Made by a program: the position numbers and the translations under genes. From an uncultured virus (IMG/VR IMGVR_UViG_3300015375_000848) (Duplodnaviria; Heunggongvirae; Uroviricota; Caudoviricetes): a stretch of DNA of 64,000 nt. Below are positions 77-51,981 of the stretch, piece by piece (within the stretch, counting starts at the first letter, position 1; every line of letters starts with the position of its first letter). The stretch lies in the IMG/VR virus record IMGVR_UViG_3300015375_000848; one strand, given 5' to 3'. A model generated the notes under the pieces. That model was not told the DNA's origin. It did no database searches and saw nothing but the letters and a program-made list of their open reading frames with translations.

Positions 77-115
77 CACTGTCAATAACGACAATAACCA
101 CAAAAAACACAAACC

Positions 116-8580: not shown

Positions 8581-8595
8581 TTAAAATAAATTAAT

Positions 8596-9273: not shown

Positions 9274-9274
9274 T

Positions 9275-9697: not shown

Positions 9698-9703
9698 CTA
9701 AAA

Positions 9704-10333: not shown

Positions 10334-10533
10334 GAAAAGTTCTTTTGTGGCTAATTTTTATATTTCATACACTTTCTATATCCACATATTTATGTGCGGT
10401 CGTTTTGGGGTATTTAAAGTCCGAAAAGGTGATTTTGATTTTTTTATCAATTAGTGGTATCTTGACAACCCTAACTTTTTCAGAATATGTTTTAAAATAC
10501 AATTTTGAAAAGGAAGGACGTAAAAGATACTGA
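10330..10533 (+). CDS. Small two-TM membrane protein
   Basis: Two hydrophobic helices. Confidence 0.55.
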   Translation: MRKVLLWLIFIFHTLSISTYLCAVVLGYLKSEKVILIFLSISGILTTLTFSEYVLKYNFEKEGRKRY

Positions 10534-10535
10534 AA

Positions 10536-10898
10536 ATGAATATAAAACAACAGCTTGTAACAGTACTCATAGCTTTTGCTTCTGTTATTTTTTCACTTTT
10601 CTTGTTTGGCAGTAATAAAAATCTGCACAGCAAAATTTCTGTTTTAGAAGGTCAAAAGCAGCAGATGGAAGAAAGGATTAAGGAGCTGTCGGAAGAAAGA
10701 CTTGAAGTGCTTGACAGTATATTAAATGTTCAATACCAAGTACAAGAACTAGAAAAAGCTGAAAGTAAGCTCAAGACAAAAAATAATAACCTCGAACTAC
10801 AGCTTAAATCTTTAAAATCAAAGTATGAAAAAGCTAATAATCATAGCGTTAACTACAATACTGACAGCATCAGAAGGTATTTCGCAGAGTTCGACTGA
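10536..10898 (+). CDS. N-anchored coiled-coil protein, spanin-like (inner)
   Basis: N-terminal TM plus long coiled coil; overlaps the next gene. Confidence 0.5.
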   Translation: MNIKQQLVTVLIAFASVIFSLFLFGSNKNLHSKISVLEGQKQQMEERIKELSEERLEVLDSILNVQYQVQELEKAESKLKTKNNNLELQLKSLKSKYEKANNHSVNYNTDSIRRYFAEFD

Positions 10899-11238
10899 TA
10901 CTACTTGTTTGCCTAATAGCCAGCTCAAAAGGGTTATAAATCGAATCGAAGCTTGTAAAATTATTGAGGAAGAGCTAACCCTATCTAAAAGCCAACTACA
11001 GCTTGCAAACCAAAGAATTAATTTAAAAGATTCTGTAATTTCTAAGCTTCACCTTCAGGAAGCCAATTATGAAAGGCTAGTTCAAAACTATAAAAAAACG
11101 GAAAGTACTTTTAGAGCAGTAGTAGATACTCAAGAAAAACAAATAAATTTACAAAAGAAATTAATCCGAAGAAAAGGCTTTAGCAAATGGATTGTTGGGG
11201 CTTTAGGAATTTGTATAGGTTATTTAATAGCAAAATAA
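10825..11238 (+). CDS. Signal peptide + coiled coil + C-terminal hydrophobic tail, spanin-like partner
   Basis: Overlapping pair architecture recalled from Bacteroidota phages; no clear lipobox. Confidence 0.45.
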   Translation: MKKLIIIALTTILTASEGISQSSTDTTCLPNSQLKRVINRIEACKIIEEELTLSKSQLQLANQRINLKDSVISKLHLQEANYERLVQNYKKTESTFRAVVDTQEKQINLQKKLIRRKGFSKWIVGALGICIGYLIAK

Positions 11239-11239
11239 A

Positions 11240-11449
11240 ATGGAAGAAACTAACATATCTAAAACAGATAGCCCACTAGGATTCGATGTTCAATCGGTTC
11301 GGTTATTAGATGTTTTTTTTATTGCTCCTTTTCTTATGTATGTGGGAACTAATAAATCACTATCTACACCAGTTAGAGCAACTCTATGGGGAATAGGACT
11401 TGCCACTCTTTTTTATAATGGGCATCACTACTTAAAAAATAAAAAATGA
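11240..11449 (+). CDS. Small two-TM membrane protein
   Basis: Q.VRLLDVFFIAP hydrophobic hairpin. Confidence 0.65.
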   Translation: MEETNISKTDSPLGFDVQSVRLLDVFFIAPFLMYVGTNKSLSTPVRATLWGIGLATLFYNGHHYLKNKK

Positions 11450-11715
11450 CCAAATACACACTTAACAAAGGGCAGCAAGGAGAAAAGGTTTTAATGATTG
11501 ATGGAATACAAAGTATTTGTCCTTTTGTAGACCCCATACCAATGCAAGGGCAGATGGGTCAAATACAGCTTATGAGATTACCTTGTACAACTGCTTGCCC
11601 CCATGCTGTTGTTACCGAAGAAGAATATTGTATTAGCTGTAGTGGTAAACTAACAGTATTTGAATTAGATGAAGAAATAGGTCTAAAGTCCGATAGTTTA
11701 ACAATAGTAGAATGA
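11446..11715 (+). CDS. Cys-containing hypothetical protein
   Basis: CPF..PC...CPH..C..C. Confidence 0.6.
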   Translation: MTKYTLNKGQQGEKVLMIDGIQSICPFVDPIPMQGQMGQIQLMRLPCTTACPHAVVTEEEYCISCSGKLTVFELDEEIGLKSDSLTIVE

Positions 11716-11930
11716 GAATTGAGATTACTATAAACGGAAGTAAATATCTTGTTGAAAGAGAATCATTCGATGCAGAAACCGCATTTGATGATTTTTTAAA
11801 CTTACTATTTATTTCTGGTGTTGAAGTTGAAGACTTAGAAAAAATAATCAATTTAGCTTCTAAAAAAACGGTAAAAGAAAACCATAAAAAAGATGAGCTC
11901 AAAAACCTACCGAATACTTGCAACCTTTGA
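11712..11930 (+). CDS. Hypothetical protein
   Basis: ORF with ATGA coupling. Confidence 0.55.
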   Translation: MRIEITINGSKYLVERESFDAETAFDDFLNLLFISGVEVEDLEKIINLASKKTVKENHKKDELKNLPNTCNL

Positions 11931-13131
11931 TTACAATGCACCAACTGGGTTTGCAACCGTATCTAAAAACCTTGTAAAAAACTGGAAAAAAATATTTGGC
12001 GAATCTATAAAGCTGGATATTGTGGCAGTTAATTATTTCGGAGAAGATTATACCGAAGGCGAAAACGTTAGGGTTATTTCTGCTAAAAAGAAGGATGTGG
12101 CTAAAGACGATTGGGGTCGCTATGTTTTTATGCGCAGCCTAAAAGATATTGATTACGACCTTATATTTTGCTTGGCCGACTTGGGAACCGTTGTTCCTAT
12201 GATACCCTATTTAAAAGAGATTAAAGAGGAAAAAAAAGCAGCTAATCGAAAGCAGTTCAAAAGCATACTTTACTTTCCAGTAGACTTTGCCCTAACACCT
12301 AATTTGGGCGTAGGACTTGAATTCTTTGACTCTTTGGCGACTTATACAGAATTTGGTAGGTTTCATGCCTTGAGAATAAATCCTGCTTTGAAGGGTAAGA
12401 TAAAGGTTGTTCCACATGGAAATAACATGGAGAACTTCTATCCTTTGGAGCTAGAACATGTACAAACCTTTAGAAAAGAATACTTTGGAGAGAATGCTGA
12501 TAAATTTATAGTTGGATGCGTAAATAGAAACCAGTCTAGAAAAGACATTCCTACAACCATTTTTGGCTTTTTAGAATACTGGGAAAACCATAATAGCAAC
12601 AGCTTTTTGTATTTACATATGAACCCTAAAGACCCTATGGGGTGGCATTTAAGGACTATTCTTGCCCAAACCCCTTTGAGGGAGGGTAGAGACTTTATGT
12701 TTCCTCCACAAGACGATTATAATAAAGGTGCTGACTTAGTGAAACTCAATAAGATATATAACTCTTTTGATTGCTTTTTAAGCACGGCAACGGGAGGTGG
12801 ATGGGAGCTTACTGTTACAGAAGCCATGAGTGCCAAAAAGCCCGTTATAATACCCAAACACACCTCTTTTGAACATTTGGGAGGCAGCAACGGGGAAAGG
12901 GCTTATTTTTTAGAAACCCTTTATCCAATAGTGGCTATGGTAGATAACATAATTCGCTTTCAATGCGACCTTTATGAGATTTCAGATACCCTTGACCAAG
13001 TGTATAAAGACAAGAAAAGCCGAGCCTTAGACCAGACTTTGAAGATAGAAAAGGCCTATAAATTTGTGGAGTCTCTGAATTGGACAGACATATCCAAGTC
13101 TTTTGCTGACGAAATCAAAAGGTTGGGATAA
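11893..13131 (+). CDS. Glycosyltransferase family 4 (GT-B)
   Basis: PTGFA.V, VPHG, VNRNQ.RK, IYN.FD.F..T..GGGWEL...EAM. Confidence 0.9.
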   Translation: MSSKTYRILATFDYNAPTGFATVSKNLVKNWKKIFGESIKLDIVAVNYFGEDYTEGENVRVISAKKKDVAKDDWGRYVFMRSLKDIDYDLIFCLADLGTVVPMIPYLKEIKEEKKAANRKQFKSILYFPVDFALTPNLGVGLEFFDSLATYTEFGRFHALRINPALKGKIKVVPHGNNMENFYPLELEHVQTFRKEYFGENADKFIVGCVNRNQSRKDIPTTIFGFLEYWENHNSNSFLYLHMNPKDPMGWHLRTILAQTPLREGRDFMFPPQDDYNKGADLVKLNKIYNSFDCFLSTATGGGWELTVTEAMSAKKPVIIPKHTSFEHLGGSNGERAYFLETLYPIVAMVDNIIRFQCDLYEISDTLDQVYKDKKSRALDQTLKIEKAYKFVESLNWTDISKSFADEIKRLG

Positions 13132-13396: not shown

Positions 13397-16393
13397 TTGA
13401 AACGGAAGGGTAGAAAATCGGCTGCTCAAACTCCAGCACCCGCAAAAGAAAGGATTTATGGGTCTAAAAAGAACCCATCAGGTAGTGCTGCAAGCAAGTC
13501 TTCAGCATCTAAAATAAAGCTTTCAAGCTCTATAATTCAAACTCTGAAGGATAAGGCTGCCAAATATAACAAAACTCATAAAAAAGATGTTTCTACTTCT
13601 ACTCTATCAGCTGTTATGCGAAGAGGTATGGGAGCTTACTCTAAATCACATAGACCCACAATTACTGGTGGTGCACCTAACTCAAGACAAGCGTGGGGTT
13701 TTGCAAGAGTAAATAAATTTTTAAAAAAGAAATCTGGAGAGCCAGTGAAAAAAGCATATGTACAAGACGATGACCTTTTAGAAAATGGTGGGGAAATAAA
13801 AGGTATTGTAAAAGCAAAGACAATAACTTATACGATTGAAGATTTTAAACACGATATTGAGCTTTCTGAAAGATGGCTTACCGACTGGCAAAGAGAAAGA
13901 TGGGTGAAGGAGGGTCAATCTGAAGAACAGATTGAGAGAGATATAAGACTCGCAAAAAAAGAAATTAGTTTACTCACAAGCAGAACGCCTTTTACTACTT
14001 GGTTTTTAGAAATACCTAAAGGACAGTATAAATTTGAAATAGCTGGAGCAACTTATGAAATAAAAAAAGATGTCCGTAAAGTTGATGTTGAATTTGGATG
14101 GAAGCGATATAAGCAAAACAAAAACTTTTGGTATGTTGTAAAGACTAATGATGTCCAAACCCCCTTTGATAAGTATATTGTCCCATTTATGGAAATTTAC
14201 CTCTCAAAAACACGGGAGTATGATTCAAAAGAAAGAATGATAGATGGTATAAATAGATATTTTAAAAATCTAATACGAGAAGATATTTCTGAATATCCCT
14301 TACCCAAAAACCATGATATAAGATATAAAGATGGGGGGCAACTTTCTTTAGGTGCTGTTTATAGCGGTTCTAAAGTCAAGACTTATTTAAACAAGGCTGA
14401 ATTTAAAGACCAATCATTTTTTCAATTTATCAATAACGGAGATAAGTACATACTCAAAAGTTTAACTATTAAAGATTTAGTATCAAGAGATTCTACTTTA
14501 CAATCATTTTTAAAAAGCGATGAGGCAAAGTATGAAAAAAATACTGATGAGTTCTCTCGGATTAATAATTATCCGATAGTTGTAGGAGATACCGATTATG
14601 GAAAGAATATAGTATTAGATGGGTACCATAGAATTGCTCAAGCTGTAGCTAACGGAGAATCAAAGATTAATGCTTTTGTAAAAATAGGTTCTGAATATCC
14701 CTTACCCCAAAAATCTGATATAAGATACGATACGGGAGCAGAATTACCAGTAGGCAAATTGGCAAAGGGAATGTCCCTTTCCGAAGTTGCTGCAAAGCAT
14801 AATCTGACCGCTGACGACTTGAAATCAGAATTAGTTTTAGGTATTGAGACAGAAAAAGAGCACACTGACAATCCAGATATTGCCAGAGCTATTGCCCTTG
14901 ACCACCTTTTTGAAGACCCTAAATACTATACCAAGCTGAAACAAATGGAAGGTATGGACTCCCACCTTTCCGAAATTTCTTCTAAATACGCTGGAGGCGG
15001 GTCTATAACCCCTATTTTCCAATTTAACACCCCGACTGGGGAAAAGTCTAGCCTTACCTACTTACAGCAAGTATTGGTCAGGACAAAGGCTTTCAAAGCA
15101 TTTTTTGGGGACTGGGAAGCAGCAGCCAAAGCATTTATAGCCGATAAAAGAGAAAACTTTGCCAAGCACTTTGCTGGCGTTTCTTTGGTATTAGACTATA
15201 AAACTTTTGAGCCTAAAGCCGTTTATCACGGGACTAGAAGCGAAAGCGAATTTTTCCGTTTTGACGTTAACAAGGATAAAGGGGTAGGAAGACCTTATGG
15301 CTACTTTGCTCACAATAAGGAATACTCACAAAACTTTACGACTAGCTCACAGCGGTCTGCAAAAAGCTCAAAACCATATTTATATGAGGTTTTTTTGGAT
15401 GTGAGAAAGCCTTTTTATGCAAATACTGACAGCTTTATCTTAAAAAACAAAGATGCTAACGGCTGGAAGGCAACTATAGCTTCAGCAATAGCTATTCAGA
15501 AATACGCCCCAAACAAGCCCTCTGTAGAGGAAACTATGGAGATTGATATGGCGGTAGAAAGCCAGATTGGTAAATATATTGAAAGCGTATACAAAAACGG
15601 GAGTGCTCCTTTTTGGAGGCTTATGGCTTCCGATGTGGACAAGGACTTCAAATACTTCCTTATGTCATACGGGTTTGACGGTATATTTTATGGGGAGGAG
15701 TTTCAGTCAGGTTTTGACCCAGATGACCCAGCACAATATACCCGTGCTGTAACAATCTTTGACTCAAAGCAAGTAAAGCTGGCTGACGGGCGTAACCTGA
15801 ATTTTGATGCCTTGATTGACGATATTCGGTATCAAGAAGGTGGGGATATTGAGGCAGAGCCAGTAGAAGAAAACTCAATACATATTCCTATGAATAAAAA
15901 AATGAAATTAGGGGCACTCCTTTTCGGGGAGACCTATGCTGAAGGCGGGGAAGTCATTGATGACAAAGGCAATAAGACAAATGACGGTAAAAAGGGCGGA
16001 TATTTTAAGGGTAGAAGCCACGCTGAAGGCGGTATTAAAGCAATTAATGTAGATACGGGTCAGCTTATTGAAGTAGAGGGCAACGAAGTAATTATTACCA
16101 AAGGTGCTGTTGCTGATAACACCAAGCGTGAATTTGAGGGCGAAATGCTTACAAACCGTGAAATCTTATCACGAATTAATCAATCTGGTGGTGGCGTATC
16201 TTTTGAAGAGGGTGGAGAATTGAAAGAGGGTAATCACACTTGCGGTTGCAGCGGTAAAAAATATAATTATGGTGGGGAGCTTTTGGAAGATTTTAATATC
16301 ATAACAAAACTAAATGAGCCTTACGATTCAACTCAAGCAAGAGTTAAAAAAGCTAGGGCTTTTGTTGATGACCTAATTTTTAAAATGCAGTAA
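13397..16393 (+). CDS. Large polyvalent protein: DUF5824-like + ParB/Srx-like + DUF5661 + ADP-ribosyltransferase (ART-PolyVal-like) + tape-measure C-terminal-like domain
   Basis: RRGMGAY..SHRP..QAWGFARVNKFL; VLDGYHR; GIETEKEHT..IALDHL.EDPKYYTKL; VRT.AFK.FFGDWE..VYHGT..GFDGI..QVK..DIRY; GRSHAEGG..EVEGNE. TTG start uncertain. Confidence 0.8.
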   Translation: MKRKGRKSAAQTPAPAKERIYGSKKNPSGSAASKSSASKIKLSSSIIQTLKDKAAKYNKTHKKDVSTSTLSAVMRRGMGAYSKSHRPTITGGAPNSRQAWGFARVNKFLKKKSGEPVKKAYVQDDDLLENGGEIKGIVKAKTITYTIEDFKHDIELSERWLTDWQRERWVKEGQSEEQIERDIRLAKKEISLLTSRTPFTTWFLEIPKGQYKFEIAGATYEIKKDVRKVDVEFGWKRYKQNKNFWYVVKTNDVQTPFDKYIVPFMEIYLSKTREYDSKERMIDGINRYFKNLIREDISEYPLPKNHDIRYKDGGQLSLGAVYSGSKVKTYLNKAEFKDQSFFQFINNGDKYILKSLTIKDLVSRDSTLQSFLKSDEAKYEKNTDEFSRINNYPIVVGDTDYGKNIVLDGYHRIAQAVANGESKINAFVKIGSEYPLPQKSDIRYDTGAELPVGKLAKGMSLSEVAAKHNLTADDLKSELVLGIETEKEHTDNPDIARAIALDHLFEDPKYYTKLKQMEGMDSHLSEISSKYAGGGSITPIFQFNTPTGEKSSLTYLQQVLVRTKAFKAFFGDWEAAAKAFIADKRENFAKHFAGVSLVLDYKTFEPKAVYHGTRSESEFFRFDVNKDKGVGRPYGYFAHNKEYSQNFTTSSQRSAKSSKPYLYEVFLDVRKPFYANTDSFILKNKDANGWKATIASAIAIQKYAPNKPSVEETMEIDMAVESQIGKYIESVYKNGSAPFWRLMASDVDKDFKYFLMSYGFDGIFYGEEFQSGFDPDDPAQYTRAVTIFDSKQVKLADGRNLNFDALIDDIRYQEGGDIEAEPVEENSIHIPMNKKMKLGALLFGETYAEGGEVIDDKGNKTNDGKKGGYFKGRSHAEGGIKAINVDTGQLIEVEGNEVIITKGAVADNTKREFEGEMLTNREILSRINQSGGGVSFEEGGELKEGNHTCGCSGKKYNYGGELLEDFNIITKLNEPYDSTQARVKKARAFVDDLIFKMQ
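14287..14740 (+). repeat. Intragenic direct repeat (19 bp exact, about 50 bp degenerate) at 14287 and 14689
   Basis: TTCTGAATATCCCTTACCC occurs twice, 402 bp apart, encoding SEYPLP..DIRY. Confidence 0.85.
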
Positions 16394-16394
16394 A

Positions 16395-17870
16395 ATGGCA
16401 ACAAAATATTTATCTATAGATACAGTTGTTGGACAGACTCAATGGAGTGATGGTCTTAAAAAGAGTATGATTCAAGATTTTGTAAAATCTGGATATGGTA
16501 ATGTTGCACCCTTGAAAGGTGCAGATTTTTTAGAAACAAGTAAAAATATACAAAGTAAAGTAAGCGGTTTTTCATCAGGGAAAAATACATATTTACAAGC
16601 AAATCAAATAGCGGATATTATTCATTCTATGGGTGTTGGCAGCCCAAGAAGATATTATAAAAGAAAAGTAAAAGCCGATGCTAGTCAGGATGGAGACGTA
16701 TTGAAAGATTGCTCTGGCTGGACGATTACCAAAAAGAATTTGGATGATGGTAGAATTGTTTATAACGCTAATATAAAAGCCGAAACACCAAAAAACAAAG
16801 GAGATTGGGCTGCAATTAAAGGGGACGTTTATGTAGAGACTGGTTTTAAGTGGAATTACAAATTTCAAAAATTTGAAAGGTGGGGTCAGCTTGAAAACGA
16901 AAGTGAAATAATTCAAAAACTTTGTCAGGTTTTAGGTAAGTATTATGAGGGCGGAGAAAAGCCAGCCCCAGCCCCTCAAAGCACAACATTAAAAGAAGGC
17001 GACAAATTCAAAATATATGGTAGGGTTTATGAAATAAATAGAATACTTGAAGGGAGAGTATTTTATAATCCAGTAGACGATGAAATGGCTGAAAGAGATG
17101 TTACTATTTCTGAAGCTGAAAAGGAAATCGCAAATGGAATATGGGTTAAAATTGAAGACGAAGAAGCCCCCCAAGCCCCAACACCTGAAGCTCCAAAATC
17201 AAAAGAAGAAAATTCAATTCCAGCAAACCCAAAACTTGATTACTGTAGAATAAACTGGGCTGAAGGTTTGGCTGAATACGCTGATAAGTTTCCAAAAGAT
17301 TTTAGCTCATTCACAGAGCTTACAAAATATATTGCTAAAAATATAAAAGCGTTGCCGAATAAAGGCTACGACAAGCACGGGGTAGAATGGAAATGGAAAT
17401 TTGAAGAGCAAGAGGTTACGGACAGATGGGATGTAAGTGAAAGCGAAGCAAACCCTTTCAAATATCCTAACCTTTATGCCTCTGAAATGATGCGAACGCT
17501 TTGTTATTACGCTTGGTATATTGAAACTGATGAAGAAACAACTTTTAAAGAAAATGACGATTTTATTGCAGAAATGCTTGGTAAAGAAGGTTTTGAATTA
17601 AACGATGAGCAATTTAATGCCATTCTTAAATTATATCTCACTCTTTACAAACAAGATACCAAAAGATTCAAATATAACACACCTGAAGAGAGGCTTGAAA
17701 GATTTAAAGAGGTATATCCAAAAACCTACAAGCTATTTAACTCTGGTGGTCAAGCAAAGTCAAAAGAGGATATTGAAAAAGCAATAAAAGGTCTACAATT
17801 CTTGGCTGACAAAGGAAACGAAAAAGCTAAAAAAGCAATTATTGGTTTAAAAATCTTATTAAATAAATAA
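16395..17870 (+). CDS. Modular protein with LPD25-like domain
   Basis: I.WAE..FSSF.E..GYDK....W..DRWDV resembles LPD25 (recalled); Pro/Ala linkers; C-terminal tag shared with 20936. Confidence 0.6.
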   Translation: MATKYLSIDTVVGQTQWSDGLKKSMIQDFVKSGYGNVAPLKGADFLETSKNIQSKVSGFSSGKNTYLQANQIADIIHSMGVGSPRRYYKRKVKADASQDGDVLKDCSGWTITKKNLDDGRIVYNANIKAETPKNKGDWAAIKGDVYVETGFKWNYKFQKFERWGQLENESEIIQKLCQVLGKYYEGGEKPAPAPQSTTLKEGDKFKIYGRVYEINRILEGRVFYNPVDDEMAERDVTISEAEKEIANGIWVKIEDEEAPQAPTPEAPKSKEENSIPANPKLDYCRINWAEGLAEYADKFPKDFSSFTELTKYIAKNIKALPNKGYDKHGVEWKWKFEEQEVTDRWDVSESEANPFKYPNLYASEMMRTLCYYAWYIETDEETTFKENDDFIAEMLGKEGFELNDEQFNAILKLYLTLYKQDTKRFKYNTPEERLERFKEVYPKTYKLFNSGGQAKSKEDIEKAIKGLQFLADKGNEKAKKAIIGLKILLNK

Positions 17871-17872
17871 AA

Positions 17873-19333
17873 ATGGCTAGTAAAAAACAACTTGAAAAAA
17901 AGTTAGCTGACTTGAGAGATTCTCTTGATGCAGTCCCCGATGAATTCAAAGCTGATATTCAAAAGGAAATTGACGAAACAGAGAAAGCTCTTGCTTCCGC
18001 CACTGACGATGACGAAGCAAAACCTAAACCCTCAAGAAAAGCTGAAAAAGCCCCTGAAAGCGGGGATGACTTTTTAAAGGCTATGCTTTCAACAATAGCT
18101 GCTCAAATGGCTGCTGGAGAAGGCACGGGAGTAGATAGCCCTACCGTTAGAGCCATAATTAAAGAGTATTTGGGTGCTGACAAAGTGAAGCTAAATGAGC
18201 TTGACAAGTCCGTGCTTGAAGAAATTAAAAAGAATCAGACTTTAATACTTTCAATACCAGCCTTCGGGAAAAAGATTGAAGTAAGTAAGGATATTTCAAT
18301 GATACCTAACTTCTTTGATATTATTGACGATGTATTTGCTGGAAATAACGTATACCTAATTGGAGAAGCGGGTGGTGGTAAGACCTACACCGCTGAAATG
18401 GTCGCTAAAACCCTTGAAAGGGAATATGTGACCTTAAACTGCTCACAGTATACTTCCCCCCTTGAAATTTTGGGTGGACAATCTATTGAGGGTTTTAAGC
18501 AAGGAAAGCTAATTGACTGCTGGAAAAACGGTAAAGTCCTGATTTTGGACGAAATGCCCAAGCTAGACGCAAATACAGCGGGTCTTTTCAACGATGCCCT
18601 AGCCAAGAGTAGTAAGACAAAACCAAAAGCAGAGGCTAAAATTAACTCTGCAAACGCTGAAGAGCCACCTATTGAGAGAAACGACAATTTTGCCGTTATC
18701 GCAACGGGTAATATCTACCCCAATGAGCCACCAGCACCCCAATATCGTGGTAATAACCAGCAAGACCTTTCTCTTTTAGACCGTTTTTCTGGTAGCGTTT
18801 ACTACACCGAATTTGACAATAATACAGACCAAAGGACTTGTAGGTTTCAATTCTTATATGACTTCCTAGTTGGAAATTATTATGAGTATATCAATGCTAA
18901 AAAGAAGGGAAACCCACTTCCAGCTCCTAGAGGTTTGAGGACTGTTATTGAGTCACTTAACCTTAAAAACCTAGCCCTTGTTTCTTATCGTACAAACATA
19001 TCTTTCAGAGTTGGTTTTGAATACCAGCTTGTAAGGGCTATTGCTAAAGCTGAAGGAGAAGAGGTTATGGAAATGGGTAAAACCTTATTGAAAACCTTTA
19101 AAAGCTATATGGTTGCATTTAAGGAAGGGTCTGATGCCTATAATAACATTATTCGCACCACAAAGTATACTGATGACTATGTGACTAATCTTGCGAATAC
19201 AGCTATTAGGGAAATTACTAAAGACAAGGACGGCTTCTTAAATTCTTTGACTGGCGTAGATAAGTCCCGTGCTAGCAACATATATCAGAGATACAGAGAC
19301 TTTTATGTAACTAACCCAACTATTAAAGGATAA
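17873..19333 (+). CDS. AAA+ ATPase (MoxR/CbbQ/CobS-like, AAA_5)
   Basis: Walker A GEAGGGKT, Walker B LILDE, IATGN, LDRF arginine finger. Confidence 0.9.
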   Translation: MASKKQLEKKLADLRDSLDAVPDEFKADIQKEIDETEKALASATDDDEAKPKPSRKAEKAPESGDDFLKAMLSTIAAQMAAGEGTGVDSPTVRAIIKEYLGADKVKLNELDKSVLEEIKKNQTLILSIPAFGKKIEVSKDISMIPNFFDIIDDVFAGNNVYLIGEAGGGKTYTAEMVAKTLEREYVTLNCSQYTSPLEILGGQSIEGFKQGKLIDCWKNGKVLILDEMPKLDANTAGLFNDALAKSSKTKPKAEAKINSANAEEPPIERNDNFAVIATGNIYPNEPPAPQYRGNNQQDLSLLDRFSGSVYYTEFDNNTDQRTCRFQFLYDFLVGNYYEYINAKKKGNPLPAPRGLRTVIESLNLKNLALVSYRTNISFRVGFEYQLVRAIAKAEGEEVMEMGKTLLKTFKSYMVAFKEGSDAYNNIIRTTKYTDDYVTNLANTAIREITKDKDGFLNSLTGVDKSRASNIYQRYRDFYVTNPTIKG

Positions 19334-19335
19334 TA

Positions 19336-20631
19336 GTGAATCCGAATCCGTCATATTATAAAAGAGAAACTTTAAGGGGAAGCAGCACAGCGTTTCTTTT
19401 TGATGGGCTTGACCTATACAATCGTTTTATTGACGATGTAGACCAAGCTGCACAAGGGAATGCAAGAAGGGGTTTGGACAGAATTAATAGCCCTAACTAT
19501 GTAAACGATAATGCCAGCAATCGTTGGTATGGCACAACTGATACTAGCTGGGCAAGTCAGCCTATAAGCACTTTTCTTTTTAATAATGAGCTTGATTCAT
19601 TTTTACAGTCTTTTAGAAATCAGACAGTTAATCTTGACGTAATTGATATTGACCAACAAAAAGCAATAAAATTTACTGAAAAGGAAATTGGTATTTTTTC
19701 TTTTGACCTTGCCAGTCTAGGACTTATCAAGGTGTTTGAGTTTTACAGCCCGTTGCTTGATAAAATAGTCAATCCTGATTTTGTAAGGAGCTATAAAAAT
19801 GATAAGGGAGAGCTTGTTTTTTACCACGTTTATACTCCGTATGTCCCCAAACATATTTGTAAGTATGATATTGACAAGAATGGTTACTACAGCAATATCC
19901 TAAAAAGGAATATCAATAAGTCAGAGCTGGTAGAGGAAATTACTGATAATGAAATTTCGCTTGTGTTTCCTGAAAGGAAAGAAGTGCCCCAGCACGATGT
20001 AATAAGAAGACAGCAAATAGGGGAAAATGGTAAGCCAAAATATGCTACCACTTTTAAAAAGTGCTTTATTGAGATACCAAAAATTGAAAAGCCACTTCCC
20101 AGAATAGATATTATAGTCCCTTCAACTTTTTCATCTGGAGTAAATGCTTCTACTGAAATGCTTTACTCTTCAATGGCAGCGATTACGCTTGCAGAAAAGC
20201 TGTCAAAGTCAGGGGTTAATTACAGAATTATTGCTTGTTATGCCGTGCAAACTACTGGGGCGGGAAGCTCAAAAAAAGTTTATCCTTTTGTAACATTGAA
20301 AAAAGAGGGAGAGCCTTTAGATAAGAATAAAATAGCAGTTTTATTAAGTGACGGAAGACAATTTAGGTATCGTCAATTCAAGGGCTTTTTTGCTGTTCAA
20401 TTTGACGCTGGGTATGATTCAAGTATTGACGTTGGGACTATAGGTAGACCAATAACAGACTCACAAGATATTAAGAGAGCCTATTTAGAAATGCTTTCAA
20501 AGTCTCCCAATCCAGAAGATAGGGCTGCTGCTGAAAAGCCGAATAGCAAAATTGTTTTAGATTTAGCTTTGTCAAGACAAGGAGCTGAAAATTCTTATAA
20601 TAACATAATCAGTCAAATAGCCAATTTATGA
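19336..20631 (+). CDS. Putative vWA-like partner of the AAA+ ATPase
   Basis: Directly downstream; C-terminal A...LAEKL..SG....I..LK...EPLD...A..L....FR pattern resembles phage CobT/vWA-like partners; MIDAS not evident. Confidence 0.5.
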   Translation: MNPNPSYYKRETLRGSSTAFLFDGLDLYNRFIDDVDQAAQGNARRGLDRINSPNYVNDNASNRWYGTTDTSWASQPISTFLFNNELDSFLQSFRNQTVNLDVIDIDQQKAIKFTEKEIGIFSFDLASLGLIKVFEFYSPLLDKIVNPDFVRSYKNDKGELVFYHVYTPYVPKHICKYDIDKNGYYSNILKRNINKSELVEEITDNEISLVFPERKEVPQHDVIRRQQIGENGKPKYATTFKKCFIEIPKIEKPLPRIDIIVPSTFSSGVNASTEMLYSSMAAITLAEKLSKSGVNYRIIACYAVQTTGAGSSKKVYPFVTLKKEGEPLDKNKIAVLLSDGRQFRYRQFKGFFAVQFDAGYDSSIDVGTIGRPITDSQDIKRAYLEMLSKSPNPEDRAAAEKPNSKIVLDLALSRQGAENSYNNIISQIANL

Positions 20632-20936
20632 CACCAGACCAGAAAAAAGCCATAGAAGAGTTAAGGATGCAATTCCACGAAAATTGCAAAATGTATACCG
20701 ATTACGGTAGTGACAAGATATGCAATTTTGAAGTCCTTATGAATGAGAGCAATCCTGAAGACACAAACATTACGGTAGCGGTAACGACTATAAGCGGAAT
20801 AAGCGACAATTTTCAGCCTTATATTAAAATAGTTAATTTAATGGTTGAGCCAGATGGCACACAGTTTAATATGTCGGATGTATTTCCTCAAAGTAAGGTA
20901 GTTGCATATGTACAATCATTGAAAAAAATATCTTAA
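20628..20936 (+). CDS. Hypothetical protein
   Basis: Translationally coupled ORF. Confidence 0.7.
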   Translation: MTPDQKKAIEELRMQFHENCKMYTDYGSDKICNFEVLMNESNPEDTNITVAVTTISGISDNFQPYIKIVNLMVEPDGTQFNMSDVFPQSKVVAYVQSLKKIS

Positions 20937-21526
20937 TGGGAAAATTATTGACCATATTAGGTGCTGACGAAAATATCCAAAAGACCCTCCCAGCTGATTT
21001 ATTTCAGGCTGAAAAGGTCATTGTTGGTCTTCAAGAGATTTATTCAAATGCTCCAGATAGCCCTAAAAAGAATCAGCTTGCAATAGCAATATCTGAAGCG
21101 GTCAGAGTTATGATGGCAAGGCTAAACCCTTATTTAGTTAAGGAAGAGACGGAGGAAAAAACTGAAGAGGAAGATAAAAAACTTCCAGACGAAGAAAAGC
21201 CAGTGCCTAAAGTTAGAAGGGAGCAGCCAACGCCTCCTATGCCCCCTGAAATACCTGAAACGCCAAAGGACAAGCCTGAAGACCAGCCAAAGCCAGAGGA
21301 CGAAGAGCCGAAGCCTAAAAAGGATAAGCCTAAAGGTCAGCCTCCAGCCCCCCCACAGCCCCCACAGCCAAACCCACACAAAAAGGTAGAGGAAGAGCCG
21401 ATGAGCTGTGAGGAAATAAAAGCAGCTATTAACGGTCTTACCCTATTGGCTAAAATGGGCGATTCCGAAGCAAAAGAAATTGTAAAAGTTTTAAAAAATA
21501 AATACAAAACCCAAAATTGTAAATAA
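20936..21526 (+). CDS. Pro/Glu/Lys-rich linker protein with conserved C-terminal tag
   Basis: Long P/E/K linker; C-terminus aligns with that of 16395. Confidence 0.75.
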   Translation: MGKLLTILGADENIQKTLPADLFQAEKVIVGLQEIYSNAPDSPKKNQLAIAISEAVRVMMARLNPYLVKEETEEKTEEEDKKLPDEEKPVPKVRREQPTPPMPPEIPETPKDKPEDQPKPEDEEPKPKKDKPKGQPPAPPQPPQPNPHKKVEEEPMSCEEIKAAINGLTLLAKMGDSEAKEIVKVLKNKYKTQNCK

Positions 21527-21527
21527 A

Positions 21528-23201
21528 ATGGCAACTGCATTAAAATTAAAAAGGGATATAAATAAGCTCAAAGCAGCTATAAGAAGCAAGGCTACCCCTC
21601 AAAGCTATGTCCCCAAGCTCAAGGCACAACTCCAAAAAGCTGAAGCTGATTATGAAAGCGTAAAAGCTGGTAAGAAGTCAGCTCCTAAAGCTAGCAAGCA
21701 AGTAAAATCTACACTGGATAAGCTCAAAGCGATTATCAAAAAGAAAAAGTATGGGGCTTATCGTGCTCAAGGTGTAGACCTTGAAAAAGATGCAGACAGA
21801 CCAGCATTAAGAAGCGGTAAAAGGACTTCAAAAAGTGGCAATACTTACTACGAATACCGTGCAAACCGTATTGACGTTAAGCAGCCTCCGAAGCGTTACC
21901 CTAAACTGGAAGACGGTGGAATGATGGCTGAAGGTGGAGAAATTCCAAAAAATATATTAGAAAATGCAAAAAAAACAGCATTAAGAGATGGATACGACCA
22001 ATACATAGTTTATGATGATAATGGTTTTGGTTTTGGAAGAAAGTATGAAGATTGGTCAGATATTAAAGGATTAGTTGCTAAAGTAACAACACACTATGTA
22101 AATGGTGTTAAAAATGTAAAAGTTGAAAAGATAAAATCAAAATATGCTGGCGGTGGTAGAGTTATGCCTTTTTTAAAATTTGAATATGCTACTGAAGCAA
22201 GAAAAAAATTAGATAAAGGTCAACTTCCCGTATTTGATGGTGGAGCAGGTTTTGATTATTTAGAAAAAGAAAAAAAGCTATATTATCTTCCTTCTGTAAC
22301 TGGGGATTGGCAAGAAGTAGGCGAATTTAAAAGCAAAAAAGAATCTATTGATTGGCTTTCAGACCAACTAAAAATGCAAAGTTTTGCTGAAGGTGGCACT
22401 ATTGACAACAGCGGTATGACCCCAGCAGACTTGCAAAAACAAATCTGGAATCTTACGGCTAGGATAGCCAAGCTAGGGGACATTGAATCACGGGCAGCTA
22501 GTGATGAAATTGAAATGCTGATGAAGCAAAGGAAAAAACTTCAGTCTATGGCACTTAATCACGGGGACGTGGTTATGGCTCAAGGCGGAGAATTACACCG
22601 TAGTCAAGAGGAAAAATTTAAGTATGGTGGCTATATGGCTGAAGGGGGTGTTATTGAGCTTAAAAGCGTAGGGACATATTTTAGACCCTCTGATTTAGCT
22701 ACTTCAACTGATGGCACATTTAGTGAAGACGATATGTTCTATTTAAGTGATATTGATAATTACGAATGGTGGCACGGGCTATCAAAAGAGGACAGAGCAA
22801 GGATTGAAGAGCATTTTGACGTTGACAAACATTTGATGGATAAATTTGAAACTACAGATTTAGACACCTATCATAAAGAGGCAAAGGAGTTTTGGGAAAA
22901 TAAAAAGGAAATGAAGGGTGGTGGTTATATGGCGGGGGGTGGAAAGTCAGACGAAGAAAACCCTTTTGTAAAGAGGTGGGAAAAATTTGCTCAAGATGTA
23001 TTACTTAATAAAAAAATAGTTAAGGTAAGATACTTAACAAATGAGGAGCAAAAAAATTTAGGCTGGTATAGAAAAGCAGTAGTTATTCAATTACAAGATG
23101 GCACACTGTTTTTCCCTTCAGCAGACGATGAGGGTAATGACGCTGGTGCTATATTTTTTCAATCAAAAGACTATCCAGAGGGCATATTGCCAGTTATCTA
23201 A
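21528..23201 (+). CDS. Modular GG-motif protein (basic N-terminus, GKRxSKSGxxYYEYRANR domain)
   Basis: Nine xxxGG motifs (LEDGG, MAEGG, YAGGG, FAEGG, MAQGG, FKYGG, MAEGG, MKGGG, MAGGG) separate short domains. Confidence 0.8.
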   Translation: MATALKLKRDINKLKAAIRSKATPQSYVPKLKAQLQKAEADYESVKAGKKSAPKASKQVKSTLDKLKAIIKKKKYGAYRAQGVDLEKDADRPALRSGKRTSKSGNTYYEYRANRIDVKQPPKRYPKLEDGGMMAEGGEIPKNILENAKKTALRDGYDQYIVYDDNGFGFGRKYEDWSDIKGLVAKVTTHYVNGVKNVKVEKIKSKYAGGGRVMPFLKFEYATEARKKLDKGQLPVFDGGAGFDYLEKEKKLYYLPSVTGDWQEVGEFKSKKESIDWLSDQLKMQSFAEGGTIDNSGMTPADLQKQIWNLTARIAKLGDIESRAASDEIEMLMKQRKKLQSMALNHGDVVMAQGGELHRSQEEKFKYGGYMAEGGVIELKSVGTYFRPSDLATSTDGTFSEDDMFYLSDIDNYEWWHGLSKEDRARIEEHFDVDKHLMDKFETTDLDTYHKEAKEFWENKKEMKGGGYMAGGGKSDEENPFVKRWEKFAQDVLLNKKIVKVRYLTNEEQKNLGWYRKAVVIQLQDGTLFFPSADDEGNDAGAIFFQSKDYPEGILPVI

Positions 23202-23217
23202 AATATAAAAAATTTAT

Positions 23218-25221
23218 ATGAAGCTGTTTACAAAAGATATAGATAAAAAGCTATTTGCCCAGTATGATTTAGGTGCAAACCTTGAGACACAAAAGGTAAT
23301 AGCTAAAATCTTTAACCCTTACGGGCGTGGGACTTGGTATATTATCAATTCCGACCCGTCTGACCCTGACTACTTATGGGCAATCGTTGACCTATTTGAA
23401 GTAGAATCTGGAAGTGTAAGCCGTAGTGAGTTAGAAAGCCTTAAAGTGCCCCCTTTTGGTCTCCACTTGGAAAGAGACTCTGGCTTTACTCCAATAAATG
23501 CTGCTGAATTATACAAAGGGCTTTTAGCTGGAAAACACTATAAAGAGGGCGGGGAGACAGAGCAAAGTGAAAACAAAGAAATGATTTTAAGTCAGGCTGA
23601 AGAGCTTGAGCACCACGTTGAAGAGTTTGAGGAAGCAGCCAAAAAATCTAGCCACGTCCCAGCTTGGATAGTTGCGAAAGTAGAAAGGGCAGCAACGGAT
23701 ATGAGTGATGCAGCACACTATCTTGATGCTCAAAATGAGCTTAAAAGGGAAGAAAAAGAAGGGGAAGAAGAGTATGCTTTAGGCGGAGAGGTAAAATGGC
23801 AAGAAGCAGATTTCGGGGATAGTGCCTTAGTCATTTCCGAAAACAAAATGGGTATTATCATGAAGCCCTACGGTCGGAAATTCCACTTGAAGTTCGTTGA
23901 CGGTACAGAAAAGACCTACGATGCCAATGACCTGAAGTTTTTTAAAGATATGGATGAGTTTGATTTGGGCGGGAAAATGACTGACGGGGGCAAATTAAAA
24001 AATGGTAAGTATAAATATGAGAAAGGGGATGAAGGTATGTATGAGGGAGCTGAAGTTAGAGTAGTAAAATTGCATATTGGACTTAACAGATATGAATACA
24101 ACATTTTAGATGAAGACGGTAATGTTATAACTCACGGTGCAGCACCGAAAGAAAAGTTTGAAAGAAAATTCGCATATTTTCCAAAAATGGCTAAAGGTGG
24201 AATGATGGAAAACGGTGGGAGTACATCTTCTCCGAACAGTGAATTTATGAAATGGTTTGTTGATTGGTCAAAGGGTGTTAATAAATACGTTTATGTATCA
24301 ATAACCAAGCCAAATGAGTTTTCATCTCCAGTAAAAGACGATAGTGGTAAAATTGTTATACTAGACGTGATTGAGAAAAAAGGAGATACCGATGCAAAAA
24401 AATACATAAATGAAATGTTGAAAAAAGCCGATGAATTTGGAGTGTCAATTTATTTGCAGCCTATACCAAGAACACATAATTTGAAATCTCAAGAGCATAA
24501 AGACAAAATCACGAAAGATTATCTGGTAAAATACTATCAGAAATTCGGTTTTGAAAACACGGATGGTGGGTTTATGGTTAGAGCACCTAAAATGGCTTCA
24601 GGTGGCTCATTAAAAAAAAGGTCTGAAAGAGATAGTATTAGGTTATCTAAAGAGTATCAAAAAGTTTTAGATAGTAATTTTGATGACAAAGTTTATGAGA
24701 AGTATCAAAAACTTGTAGAGGAAACTCAAATACCAAAACAAGATTTACAAAAAATTGAGCATTATGTAAGTATCACACCAAAAGGTAATAGGAGAGATAT
24801 AGATATTTATAGGTATTGGGGGGTAAATAAAATGGCTGAAGGTGGAGAGTTGTCAGCAAGTGAAATAAATGCAACAAAAGCTGAAAAATGGTGGGATAGA
24901 TTAAAACAATACGAAAGAGAACAATTATCTAAAGAATATAAGGAGCTTGAACACGAAACATTTGAAGAATGGGTTTCAAAAGTTTATGCAGCAAAGAAAA
25001 AACGAAAATTTGAGGGAGGCGGAGATGTCAAATTCAAGGACAAGGTAGCCTCAATTAAAGCCAGCCTTCTCAAACGCAAGAAAGTGCCAAAAGCCGTCCA
25101 AAAAGACTACGGCAAGACTTTCTCCCCAGCTGAAGCAGAAGACTCCGCAAAACGCATCGTAGGAGCCCAAACAGCACGGGAAAGGCTCATGATGCGGATT
25201 AAATCTAAAAAGAAGAAATAA
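23218..25221 (+). CDS. Modular GG-motif protein: DUF2958 + SH3-like + GNAT-like + basic tail
   Basis: K.FNPYG.GTWY..D..E.G.VS.SEL..ERD (DUF2958); AD..GV.I.L.P..LVKYY.KFGF..M.R.P (GNAT-like); nine xxxGG motifs. Confidence 0.8.
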   Translation: MKLFTKDIDKKLFAQYDLGANLETQKVIAKIFNPYGRGTWYIINSDPSDPDYLWAIVDLFEVESGSVSRSELESLKVPPFGLHLERDSGFTPINAAELYKGLLAGKHYKEGGETEQSENKEMILSQAEELEHHVEEFEEAAKKSSHVPAWIVAKVERAATDMSDAAHYLDAQNELKREEKEGEEEYALGGEVKWQEADFGDSALVISENKMGIIMKPYGRKFHLKFVDGTEKTYDANDLKFFKDMDEFDLGGKMTDGGKLKNGKYKYEKGDEGMYEGAEVRVVKLHIGLNRYEYNILDEDGNVITHGAAPKEKFERKFAYFPKMAKGGMMENGGSTSSPNSEFMKWFVDWSKGVNKYVYVSITKPNEFSSPVKDDSGKIVILDVIEKKGDTDAKKYINEMLKKADEFGVSIYLQPIPRTHNLKSQEHKDKITKDYLVKYYQKFGFENTDGGFMVRAPKMASGGSLKKRSERDSIRLSKEYQKVLDSNFDDKVYEKYQKLVEETQIPKQDLQKIEHYVSITPKGNRRDIDIYRYWGVNKMAEGGELSASEINATKAEKWWDRLKQYEREQLSKEYKELEHETFEEWVSKVYAAKKKRKFEGGGDVKFKDKVASIKASLLKRKKVPKAVQKDYGKTFSPAEAEDSAKRIVGAQTARERLMMRIKSKKKK

Positions 25222-31160: not shown

Positions 31161-31601
31161 ATGGCAGCAGCAGCACAAGCTACGGCAGCAGTGCCAGAAG
31201 CAGCAGCAGCGGGAGCACAAGTAGCACCAGCAGCAGCTGCAGCACCAGCACCAGCAGCACCAAGCCCTCAATATACACCGCCACCTAGCACAATGCCTAG
31301 TATGGCTGAAGGAGGAGACGTTGGCGGAGCTGCACCTAGAAAAAACCCTTTCAAGGACTTTTTTTCTGATATCAACGTTGTTGACGTTGCTATTTCTGCA
31401 TTTATTGTTGGGGCAGTCATTTATTCTATTCAATATCATAAGTTTATGATAATGATGGAGAAAACTGGCTATGCTGATTTGTCTACCCGTATTAATAGAG
31501 TAGAAAACGATATTGCGGTAGCAAAAAGAAAAGCAGCAACTGAAGCAAACGCATCTGGGAACATGAGAATGCGAAGGAAGCGAGCTTTAGTTACGTTATA
31601 A
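31161..31601 (+). CDS. Ala/Pro-rich single-TM protein with MAEGG motif
   Basis: A/P-rich N-terminus, MAEGG, TM, coiled coil. Confidence 0.7.
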   Translation: MAAAAQATAAVPEAAAAGAQVAPAAAAAPAPAAPSPQYTPPPSTMPSMAEGGDVGGAAPRKNPFKDFFSDINVVDVAISAFIVGAVIYSIQYHKFMIMMEKTGYADLSTRINRVENDIAVAKRKAATEANASGNMRMRRKRALVTL

Positions 31602-39835: not shown

Positions 39836-40633
39836 ATGACCTATACACTTTGGACAAGATATGAGCCTATAATGATTAAGCTTGTGTTACAGACTACATC
39901 CCCTCAAGATATAGTCTTGAAAGTGTATGACCCAAATCAAGCTAATACTTTTTTCACTAATAGAGAGAAGAGCGTAAACGGAGTTGAAGAGCTTTTTGTA
40001 AGGATGCCTTTATCGCCAAGCGTTGTAAAGCTTGAGGTGTACAATAAAAAAACGGGTAATGTACCCAAAGGTCAAGACCCCTCTTTTTCAGTTTTGGCAA
40101 TTAAAAAAGAAGACCTTGATATAACTCTGCCCAAAACCAAAATGGACACTTTTGCTGTTCGTAATTTTGTTGCGTTTGCTCAAAAGTTTTCATACAATGC
40201 TGGGTGGTTGTCTGCTCCTAAAGATTATTTAAGTTCGGTGGGAGCTTTTAAAATTGAATACTTGCCTTTCATCATTAATTCAAAAGGCGAGAAAATGTCT
40301 ACGCCAGCAAGAATTAGTACAAAAAACGGTAGGATTCAAGTTTCACAGCAAGCTTTTCGTGAATATACTATACCTATGCGTATGGCTATTTTGCTTCATG
40401 AATTCAGCCATTTTTATTTGAATTCTGACATATCCGATGAAACGGAAGCTGATTTAAACGGATTGACAATTTACTTAGGATTGGGGTATCCTATAAGAGA
40501 AGCTTATCAAGCTTTTACCAGCACTTTTGTTGGGCATCCAACAGACCAAAACAAACAGCGTTACGATATTATTGATAAATTTATAAGAGATTATATTCAA
40601 GAATATAAACTGAAAGATGTTTATGCTAAATAA
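39836..40633 (+). CDS. Zincin (HExxH) metalloprotease
   Basis: TPARI..I.V....F......R.AILLHEFSH...E.EAD; N-terminal beta domain. Confidence 0.85.
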   Translation: MTYTLWTRYEPIMIKLVLQTTSPQDIVLKVYDPNQANTFFTNREKSVNGVEELFVRMPLSPSVVKLEVYNKKTGNVPKGQDPSFSVLAIKKEDLDITLPKTKMDTFAVRNFVAFAQKFSYNAGWLSAPKDYLSSVGAFKIEYLPFIINSKGEKMSTPARISTKNGRIQVSQQAFREYTIPMRMAILLHEFSHFYLNSDISDETEADLNGLTIYLGLGYPIREAYQAFTSTFVGHPTDQNKQRYDIIDKFIRDYIQEYKLKDVYAK

Positions 40634-51978: not shown

Positions 51979-51981
51979 TAC

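Follow-up and report, generated by a model that had tools for sequence, protein, structure and literature searches.

What is the role of a short di-glycine peptide that recurs, often in tandem, through the proteins of an uncultured virus? The question is raised by a 64,000-nucleotide stretch of DNA from IMG/VR record IMGVR_UViG_3300015375_000848 (here referred to, at its full length, as "the window"), in which a gene block at positions 13,397 to 25,221 encodes three long proteins, the products of open reading frames (ORFs) 13397, 21528, and 23218, each named for its start position. An earlier note on this DNA had listed copies of the peptide in these ORFs and in ORFs 16395 and 31161 and had proposed either that it separates effector domains that are released from one chain by proteolysis at glycine-glycine (GG) sites or that it is a repeated capsid-docking tag. 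We find that the peptide is a property of the junctions between small protein cassettes, not of the cassettes themselves, and that it marks the points at which cassettes are exchanged. That the junctions are also sites of protein cleavage is a prediction to which we give slightly less than an even chance. Coordinates of all features are collected in Table 1.

All of the listed copies are present in the ORFs to which they had been assigned, and the peptide is indeed abundant, but the count of about 25 needs adjustment: the window holds 28 to 29 copies of a loose pattern, [MYFL]xxGG, or 23 copies of a strict pattern, [MYF]xxGGx[VITLM], which was suggested by the homologues described below. Compared with 5,000 shuffles per ORF, the loose motif occurs 7 times in ORF 13397 (shuffle mean, 1.0), 10 times in ORF 21528 (counting the overlapping YMAGG/MAGGG; shuffle mean, 0.77), and 9 times in ORF 23218 (shuffle mean, 0.68), and for each of these three ORFs, 0 of the 5,000 shuffles reached the observed number. 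For ORF 16395, which has 2 copies (shuffle mean, 0.38; 288 of 5,000 shuffles), enrichment is not significant alone, and ORF 31161 has 1 copy. Using the strict motif, 22 copies fall in ORFs 13397, 16395, 21528, and 23218 (2,713 amino acids [aa]) versus 1 in the other 57 of the 61 ORFs in the window (16,220 aa; Fisher p = 5e-18), and this lone outside copy is MAEGGDV in ORF 31161.

Glycine codons within the motifs of the window (GGT 20, GGG 13, GGC 12, GGA 10) show the same mix as glycine codons elsewhere (GGT 69, GGG 30, GGC 23, GGA 32). Thus, it is the peptide that is conserved and not a DNA recombination site, and selection on the junction acts at the protein level. A recombination signal in the DNA was ruled out on this ground, and internal translation starts at the Met of MAxGG were ruled out since about half of the sites have Y or F in place of M.

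The homologues define the peptide more closely. ORF 23218 has 497 database homologues at an E value of ≤0.001 (8,000 candidates scored), and ORF 21528 has 211; the motif statistics given here come from 120 listed homologues of ORF 23218 or from a wider set of 240 metagenomic homologues. The 120 listed homologues contain 1,106 GG sites, 952 of which (86%) have M, Y, F, L, or W at position −3. Ala occupies position −2 in 55% of the 1,106 sites (55 to 66% across counts), and the second residue after GG is V, I, T, L, or M in ∼91% of single sites. The resulting consensus is K-[MYF]-A-[KED]-G-G-[E]-[VITL] for single sites and K-[MYF]-A-x-G-G-x-[VITL] overall. Loose motifs are dense in the wider set (a total of 2,106 over 138,472 residues, a density of 1.5 per 100 aa), and 479 of 1,866 successive motif pairs are spaced by exactly 6 residues, giving a doubled junction of the form K-[YMLF]-[AE]-[KD]-G-G-[YM]-M-A-x-G-G-x-[TIVL]. 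G111 and G112 of ORF 23218 are invariant in an alignment of 108 sequences.

The position of the last motif also recurs. Among the 240 homologues, 33 (many of them homologues of ORF 21528) end 6 to 10 residues past their final motif, typically with the tail MAMGGEIHRTQE, and in many ORF 21528 homologues, the conserved tail after the last motif follows the pattern M-A-x-G-G-E-[IML]-H-R-[TL]-x-[ED]. A protein encoded at L001, a locus of the related genome G001, has a motif three residues from its C terminus. In ORF 21528 itself, the same tail (MAQGGELHRSQEE) is internal, at window positions 22575 to 22616, with further cassettes after it.

Judged by their domains, ORFs 13397, 21528, and 23218 are polyvalent effector proteins, a class of proteins of phages and conjugative elements that was defined by Iyer, Burroughs, Anand, de Souza, and Aravind in 2017 (PMC5512222). 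As in that class, several unrelated effector-type domains are joined in one virus-encoded polypeptide: ART-PolyVal, DUF5661, and DUF2958 occur here and in relatives, and the relatives also carry ddrB-ParB, SNF2 with methylase, Zeta toxin, and RelA/SpoT domains. The proteins differ from those in the published class in that their cassettes are unusually small and are joined by one explicit conserved junction peptide, and in that the zincin-type metallopeptidase considered below is a separate gene and not a domain of a polyvalent protein.

The layout of ORF 13397 is as follows: a basic N terminus, a weak DUF5824 match that falls below the Pfam cutoff, a DGYHR-containing cassette without assignment, DUF5661 (E value, 1e-13), ART-PolyVal (PF18760; E value, 3e-10; 41.3 bits versus a cutoff of 31.2), and a C-terminal domain (residues 844 to 998; window positions 15926 to 16393). 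This last domain is strongly conserved, is common to L001 and to a second related locus, L002, and has the signature GGYFxGRSHAEGGIKA...IEVEGxEVIITK...CxCSGK; Pfam and PDB searches with it gave no match. DUF2958 at the N terminus of ORF 23218 has a Pfam E value of 2e-10. The proteins look like packaged effector chains, as the earlier note had proposed. The labels "GNAT-like" and "ParB-like," also given in the earlier note, found no significant Pfam or PDB sequence match.

The motifs fall at domain boundaries, as had been suggested. In ORF 13397, they lie 9 to 14 residues past the ends of the three Pfam matches (that to DUF5824 being below the cutoff), and in ORF 23218, a motif follows DUF2958. 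Placement by structure rests on an AlphaFold2 model of ORF 23218 (108 sequences; mean pLDDT, 67.9), which depicts a chain of small folded units (DUF2958 and at least 6 others) that are parted by segments with pLDDT values of <50. These segments, which include residues 110 to 116, 181 to 190, 245 to 280, 319 to 338, 454 to 473, and 595 to 604, hold 8 of the 9 motifs, and the ninth (residues 539 to 543) is in a coil between helices. According to this model, the junction lies in unstructured linkers, which is where the earlier note had expected it. A Foldseek search with the whole model gave no match at an E value of ≤0.001.

Comparison among relatives shows what happens at these linkers. In a nine-sequence alignment, whole cassettes are gained or lost exactly from motif to motif, with DUF2958 and the basic C-terminal module fixed. 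Across the 240 homologues, 48% of internal BLAST alignment ends (n = 53,119) are ≤6 aa from a motif versus 17% of random positions, and the median distance to a motif is 7 residues for alignment ends and 21 for random positions. Between IMG/VR relatives, L001 encodes versions of 265 and 289 aa and L002 encodes versions of 1,014 and 1,119 aa, despite closely similar flanking genes; the long L002 versions have the same termini as those of L001 and many more cassettes, with a motif bounding each. Cassettes are mostly 41 to 140 aa in length. The gain and loss of domains at GG sites, which the earlier note had anticipated, is thus seen directly in the alignments.

This pattern could in principle arise without any dedicated reader of the motif, if the peptide were an inherited joint of cassette shuffling (for example, RecT mediated) that is kept by linker descent and a mild need for flexibility. 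Homology breakpoints cluster at motifs, and copy number varies extremely among close relatives, as such an origin would lead one to expect; moreover, G001 encodes RecT, a PD-(D/E)XK nuclease, and SSB, and demarcation motifs mark the exchange points of variable modules in polymorphic toxins (VENN in CdiA and DPxGL in Rhs). We nevertheless consider a passive joint improbable. Passive linkers seldom keep two hydrophobic positions and an Ala at >50 to 90%, and synonymous codon choice within the motif varies as much as it does elsewhere, so conservation does not reside in the DNA. Furthermore, the core Phi-x-x-G-G-x-Psi is kept in a genome where the candidate protease is only 36% identical and in a membrane protein that is not modular, both of which are described below.

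To separate the motif from its cargo, we followed one cassette (ORF 23218 residues 335 to 458) through 1.84 billion representative proteins. It has 106 matches in proteins of 78 to 2,161 aa and occurs at all positions within them; the 86 matches that cover most of the cassette were analyzed, and the 20 partial ones were set aside. For internal copies, the flanking sequence has a core motif within 22 residues at 55 of the 71 junctions upstream of the cassette and at 60 of the 70 downstream of it. Where the cassette stands alone (≤170 aa), the strict motif is found in 0 of 10 copies, and a Y-x-I-G-G-L ending is found in 2 of 10. Likewise, among stand-alone DUF2958 proteins of ∼100 to 135 aa from bacterial genomes (12 loci, L020 to L031), 2 of 12 have a loose match, neither of which forms a junction, and two small free-standing ORFs within the module (20628 and 20936) have no motif. 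Because 8 of the 10 stand-alone cassette copies are without the motif, a per-cargo packaging tag, including the capsid-docking tag of the earlier note, is disfavored. The distribution favors a job for the element that concerns the junction itself, and as the peptide is needed only where two cassettes meet, a protease would be its most economical reader.

The one strict copy outside the four ORFs extends the pattern to a different kind of protein. ORF 31161 encodes a small single-pass membrane protein, in which an Ala/Pro-rich N-terminal stretch is followed by the motif and then by the membrane helix. Its homologues are otherwise poorly conserved N-terminally, and they have GMAEGG or GLAEGG in L001 and L002 and a degenerate glycine-rich form in L004. 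Because the motif is common to the polyproteins and to an unrelated membrane protein, it has the pattern expected of a maturation protease site. A precedent is the vaccinia virus membrane protein A17, which is trimmed at AG-X sites.

If the junctions are cut, the best candidate for the enzyme is the stand-alone ORF 39836, ∼14.6 kb downstream of the polyvalent genes. It has the HExxH motif and downstream acidic ligand of zincins, all conserved: H188, E189, H192, E202, and D206 are invariant in 38 sequences, one of which is only 35% identical. The family has 1,343 members at an E value of ≤0.001, and among the 120 listed, identity is 66 to 92% and contigs are up to ∼87 kb in length. The AlphaFold model (pLDDT, 91.6; pTM, 0.90) has an N-terminal beta-sandwich (residues 1 to 95) and a zincin-like alpha/beta domain (residues ∼105 to 260). 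When the model was searched against representative structures, residues 109 to 262 aligned to the M48 peptidase BepA (6sar_A; Z, 7.2; 122 residues; rmsd, 4.3) and to the putative zinc peptidase 3c37_B (Z, 6.2; 119 residues), Z values of a size that the tool rates as middling or common, and the beta-sandwich aligned to domains of the CBM and GOLD types (Z up to 7.9).

Other searches with ORF 39836 were less informative. Foldseek against the PDB gave no match at an E value of ≤0.001, and a PDB sequence search likewise gave nothing; against BFVD, baculovirus enhancins matched at an E value of 1e-4 but had poor TM scores, and an M48 protein ranked 37th. There was no Pfam family at an E value of ≤0.05 and no PHROG match, and one homologue is named "Zn-dependent protease with chaperone function" in one source. 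On its conserved residues and middling fold matches, we assign ORF 39836 to the zincins in general, as a candidate zinc metallopeptidase. The earlier note had picked this ORF as a candidate protease; the peptidase assignment agrees, but the type is that of a zincin.

No competing peptidase was found. Pfam matches to any other peptidase family were absent from the window and from G001 outside L001, and for ORFs 13397, 21528, and 23218, there was no HExxH domain by Pfam and none noticed on reading the translations. The stretch at 15991 to 16215, which had also been suggested as a protease domain, is strongly conserved but has no detectable peptidase features: it has no Pfam match at an E value of ≤1 and no PDB profile match better than an E value of 0.95.

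The zincin also travels with the motif. Its profile is present in four of five motif-bearing virus records, the fifth being a 50%-complete fragment, and it was not found in two genomes that have only stand-alone DUF2958. In G006, the zincin is on the same 132-kb contig (C9; loci L019, L035, L039, and L040) as a 1,178-aa DUF2958 protein with 12 motifs. In G010, where the zincin is 35 to 36% identical, adjacent proteins of 272, 766, and 1,009 aa carry 3, 7, and 4 strict motifs, in the variant form [FY]-[DN]-D-G-G-x-[VIL], and the 766-aa and 1,009-aa proteins contain RelA/SpoT and N6-methylase domains. We infer that ORF 39836 is the likeliest junction-cutting enzyme.

Glycine-ended cleavage sites are best known from viruses of eukaryotes: the adenovirus protease cuts at (M/I/L)xGG-X, pS273R of African swine fever virus (ASFV) at GG-X, and poxvirus I7L at AG-X. 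In those viruses, as here, such sites are repeated in basic DNA-associated, polyprotein, and membrane virion proteins, and the virus studied here is also probably membrane containing. The earlier note implied homology with the adenovirus and ASFV systems, in which case a cysteine protease of the CE clan (of the adenain, Ulp1, or pS273R type) would cut after GG; the x-x-G-G core and the probably tailless, membrane-containing virion would both suit that idea. However, Peptidase_C5 (PF00770) and Peptidase_C48 (PF02902) have no match at an E value of ≤1 in any of five related virus records, one of them 100% complete, and no Pfam match in the 61 ORFs of the window, a search that used sequence models and beyond which ∼10 kb of genome extends. 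The register differs as well. With a cut after GG, the conserved M/Y/F would be at P5, five residues before the cut, whereas the adenain consensus has its hydrophobic residue at P4, closer to GG by one position; here, P4 is Ala in 55 to 66% of sites. The sites are also far denser than in adenovirus or ASFV, at ∼1.5 per 100 aa, their cleavage is predicted, and the candidate enzyme is a zinc metallopeptidase. Homology by way of a CE-clan enzyme is thus very improbable, and judging from these sequence comparisons, the resemblance to adenovirus and ASFV maturation would be at most functional.

The mechanism that we propose involves a different enzyme. Each protein has a conserved anchor module (a basic N- or C-terminal region or DUF2958), and the variable train of small unrelated cassettes between anchors is joined by K-[MYF]-A-x-G-G-x-[VITL], frequently as two copies 6 residues apart. 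The junction would serve as a protease recognition site. The chains would enter the particle as polyproteins, and cutting, either while the particle matures or once they have been delivered, would free the individual effectors. The enzyme would be the conserved stand-alone zincin of the lineage, which is the only recognizable peptidase in the complete relative, and cleavage at the same site would trim the N terminus of the ORF 31161 membrane protein. In its full form, the proposal is that large bacterial viruses of a widespread lineage, tailless and with a membrane, carry their host-takeover arsenal as cassette-coded polyproteins in which any small effector domain could be slotted between two 7- to 8-residue junctions and from which effectors are released by a virion zinc protease that also trims a membrane protein. 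We hold this full form tentatively, as possible but rather doubtful.

Several observations count against cleavage by the zincin. Two of the 10 stand-alone cassette copies do end in the core motif. Junction motifs are not obligatory, because a 2,216-aa polyvalent protein of G010 (L037:6939-13589; domains DUF5661, ddrB-ParB, SNF2 helicase, and Zeta-toxin kinase), which adjoins the three motif-rich proteins, has no strict motif. The co-occurrence of zincin and motif is weak evidence because all cases fall within one viral lineage and are not phylogenetically independent. The zincin fold match is middling (Z of ∼7), and no Pfam peptidase model matches ORF 39836. Its gene is placed among small structural membrane-protein genes that carry another motif, [FYW]x[NS][AFY]xG, found in five small structural or membrane ORFs (30455, 36984, 37395, 38088, and 41745) and absent from the polyvalent proteins; the zincin may therefore have substrates other than the junctions. 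Finally, a cut at a motif 6 to 10 residues from the end of a protein would free only a tiny peptide, and a binding element would fit such a motif equally well or better. A predicted complex of the zincin with ORF 23218 residues 305 to 345 scored 0.19 versus a mark of 0.32, which we do not count as evidence either way.

A different role is one in which the junction stays uncut and is recognized, as a hinge or short linear motif, by a factor that serves in assembly, as a chaperone, or in translocation, the chains traveling and acting intact as beads on a string. Possible readers are the AAA+ ATPase of ORF 17873 with its DUF7192 partner (ORF 19336) or a membrane protein. The gene order that places the ATPase and its partner with the polyvalent genes is shared by the window, L001, and L002; the conserved tails just past the last motif and the L001 motif three residues from the C terminus resemble a binding element; and tandem copies would raise avidity. 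There is precedent as well, since the polyvalent proteins N4 vRNAP, ArdC, and TraC1 are transferred full length, according to PMC5512222. Yet nothing connects the AAA+ ATPase to the motif, a packaging tag need not occupy nearly every cassette junction, and the absence of the motif from most stand-alone cassette copies and from the small module genes 20628 and 20936 is not what a tag would predict. On balance, we regard intact chains as unlikely, if a serious contender, and continue to prefer cleavage at the junctions.

Cleavage of packaged proteins at a short consensus has precedent among phages. The head-protein proteases T4 gp21 (L/I-x-E) and phiKZ gp175 (S/A/G-x-E) trim many packaged internal proteins, and the likeness lies in a phage protease with a short consensus in many packaged or ejected proteins. 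They differ from the enzyme considered here in being serine proteases of tailed phages that mostly remove targeting propeptides and do not part trains of cassettes. In polymorphic toxins, VENN and DPxGL likewise place a short conserved peptide at the exchange point of variable modules, and the Rhs motif is also a cleavage site, but VENN and DPxGL each appear a single time in a protein, ahead of one variable toxin tip, whereas the peptide described here is repeated at the junctions of a multicassette chain.

The earlier note had called this a strong candidate for an undescribed system, which is true in part. The polyvalent class is already in print, and zincin-like metallopeptidase processing of polyvalent proteins is predicted in PMC5512222; the junction peptide is not described in that paper, where "glycine" and "linker" occur 0 times each and the only instance of "cleavage site" is in the title of a reference. 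A full-text literature search found no description of the junction peptide, its doubling, or its role as an exchange point. What is new relative to PMC5512222 is therefore a defined junction peptide, its doubling, and the exchange of cassettes at it, and not zincin processing.

Polyvalent proteins are regarded as the weapons that a phage or plasmid injects first, and how they are built, diversified, and activated is still only predicted. A defined junction and a single candidate protease make their processing directly testable. With the junction as a guide, hundreds of metagenomic proteins that lack annotation can also be divided into candidate anti-defense or takeover domains of ∼40 to 140 aa. 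If cleavage is true, it would be a bacterial-virus analogue of the glycine-site maturation of large eukaryotic DNA viruses, reached convergently with an unrelated enzyme.

Table 1. Features of the window that bear on the junction peptide. Positions are those of the window unless marked as residues.
Feature	Position	Strand	Description
Polyvalent protein 1, ORF 13397	13397..16393	+	998 aa
Loose motifs of ORF 13397	13778-13792, 14324-14338, 14987-15001, 15830-15844, 15935-15949, 16202-16216, 16262-16276	+	7 loose, 6 strict
Domain, then motif, in ORF 13397	residues 55-114, then 128-132; 463-518, then 531-535; 605-803, then 812-816		DUF5824; DUF5661; ART-PolyVal
ORF 16395	16395..17870	+	491 aa, no family match; YYEGG 16941-16955, FNSGG 17736-17750; 2 loose, 0 strict
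MoxR-like AAA+ ATPase, ORF 17873	17873..19333	+	AAA_5, E value 2e-13; between polyvalent genes
DUF7192 protein, ORF 19336	19336..20631	+	Conserved partner gene of AAA+ ATPase 17873
Polyvalent protein 2, ORF 21528	21528..23201	+	557 aa; very basic N-terminal module, then cassettes without family match
Tandem junctions of ORF 21528	21906-21938 (LEDGG-M-MAEGG), 22617-22649, 22911-22943	+	10 loose, 7 strict motifs in the ORF
Polyvalent protein 3, ORF 23218	23218..25221	+	667 aa; N-terminal DUF2958, six to seven cassettes, conserved basic C-terminal module
Motifs of ORF 23218	23539-23553, 23773-23787, 23959-23991 (tandem), 24187-24219 (tandem), 24592-24606, 24832-24846, 25009-25023	+	9 motifs
Domain, then motif, in ORF 23218	residues 4-93, then 108-112		DUF2958
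Membrane protein, ORF 31161	31161..31601	+	Small, single pass; strict motif MAEGGDV, core 31302-31316
PAP2 phosphatase	ORF start 31616
P-loop ATPase	ORF start 34991		272 aa
Capsid candidate	ORF start 36193		234 aa
Candidate zinc metallopeptidase, ORF 39836	39836..40633	+	265 aa, stand-alone; HEFSH

All genes of the block at 13.4 to 25.2 kb are co-directional, and the polyvalent genes adjoin virion-type lytic enzymes. Downstream of the block are a glucosaminidase, whose hydrophobic C-terminal segment resembles a membrane anchor when judged by eye, an SLT transglycosylase, and a GH19 enzyme, followed by many small membrane-protein-like ORFs.

No related cultured phage was found. A megablast search of positions 13397 to 25221 against phage records gave no match; tblastn with ORF 23218 gave only one 87-residue DUF2958 match, and ORF 17873 matched only distant AAA+ ATPases. 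Relatives of the polyvalent proteins lie instead on IMG/VR virus contigs, with no confirmed IMG/VR locus for ORF 21528. Of these, G001 (loci L015, L016, L017, and L001) is a linear genome of 67,810 bp that is rated 100% complete and has inverted terminal repeats, in which 123 terminal bases are identical. Pfam found no DNA polymerase, terminase, portal, or tail genes in G001, and neither the window nor G001 yielded a terminase, a portal, an HK97-type capsid, or any tail family. PHROG "tail fibre" matches in the window are to collagen-like repeats only. A PDB sequence search with the packaging-type ATPase gave nothing, and atlas searches with the zincin and the capsid candidate gave sub-threshold leads only.

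In gene content, the P-loop ATPase, the capsid candidate, the PAP2 phosphatase, and the many small hydrophobic ORFs suggest that the virion has a membrane and no tail, and membership in the Varidnaviria is plausible. The source is an uncultured, apparently tailless bacterial virus of an abundant lineage, with a linear genome of ∼68 to 87 kb. The host is probably a member of the Bacteroidota. The 132-kb contig of G006 was binned with a Sediminibacterium metagenome-assembled genome, and both of its ends have ∼31% GC content and few long ORFs; it may be wholly viral, from a larger virus of the lineage rather than a prophage, and for this reason, the host assignment is weak.

Other features of the window and its relatives concern the virion and the genome more generally. 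Four glycine-rich ORFs with collagen-like repeats (1,673, 910, 940, and 891 aa; 20 to 26% Gly) occupy window positions 43819 to 57482, have a GC content of ∼42 to 52% compared with ∼36% for the rest of the window, and probably encode virion fibers. Intein-like inserts occur in two relatives. In L002, the MoxR-like ATPase is interrupted directly behind its Walker A lysine by an insert of ∼343 aa (L002:2485-4968 versus L001:5763-7217) that ends in HN, followed by Thr; in L001, an insert in a glycosyltransferase (L001:9-1568 versus window positions 11893 to 13131) ends in CHN, followed by Thr. The window copies of both genes are uninterrupted.

Sugar-modification genes are found at 57474 to 63937 (minus strand) and 7587 to 13131 and include a carbamoyltransferase, three glycosyltransferases, a polysaccharide deacetylase, and methyltransferases. 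Among them is a SET-domain protein (62097 to 62465). For a virus of this size, such a set of genes is unusual. A DNA methyltransferase (N6_N4_Mtase) is encoded at 5439 to 7067, and its 221-position Pfam match is spread over residues 23 to 506, which points to a large insertion in the methylase domain.

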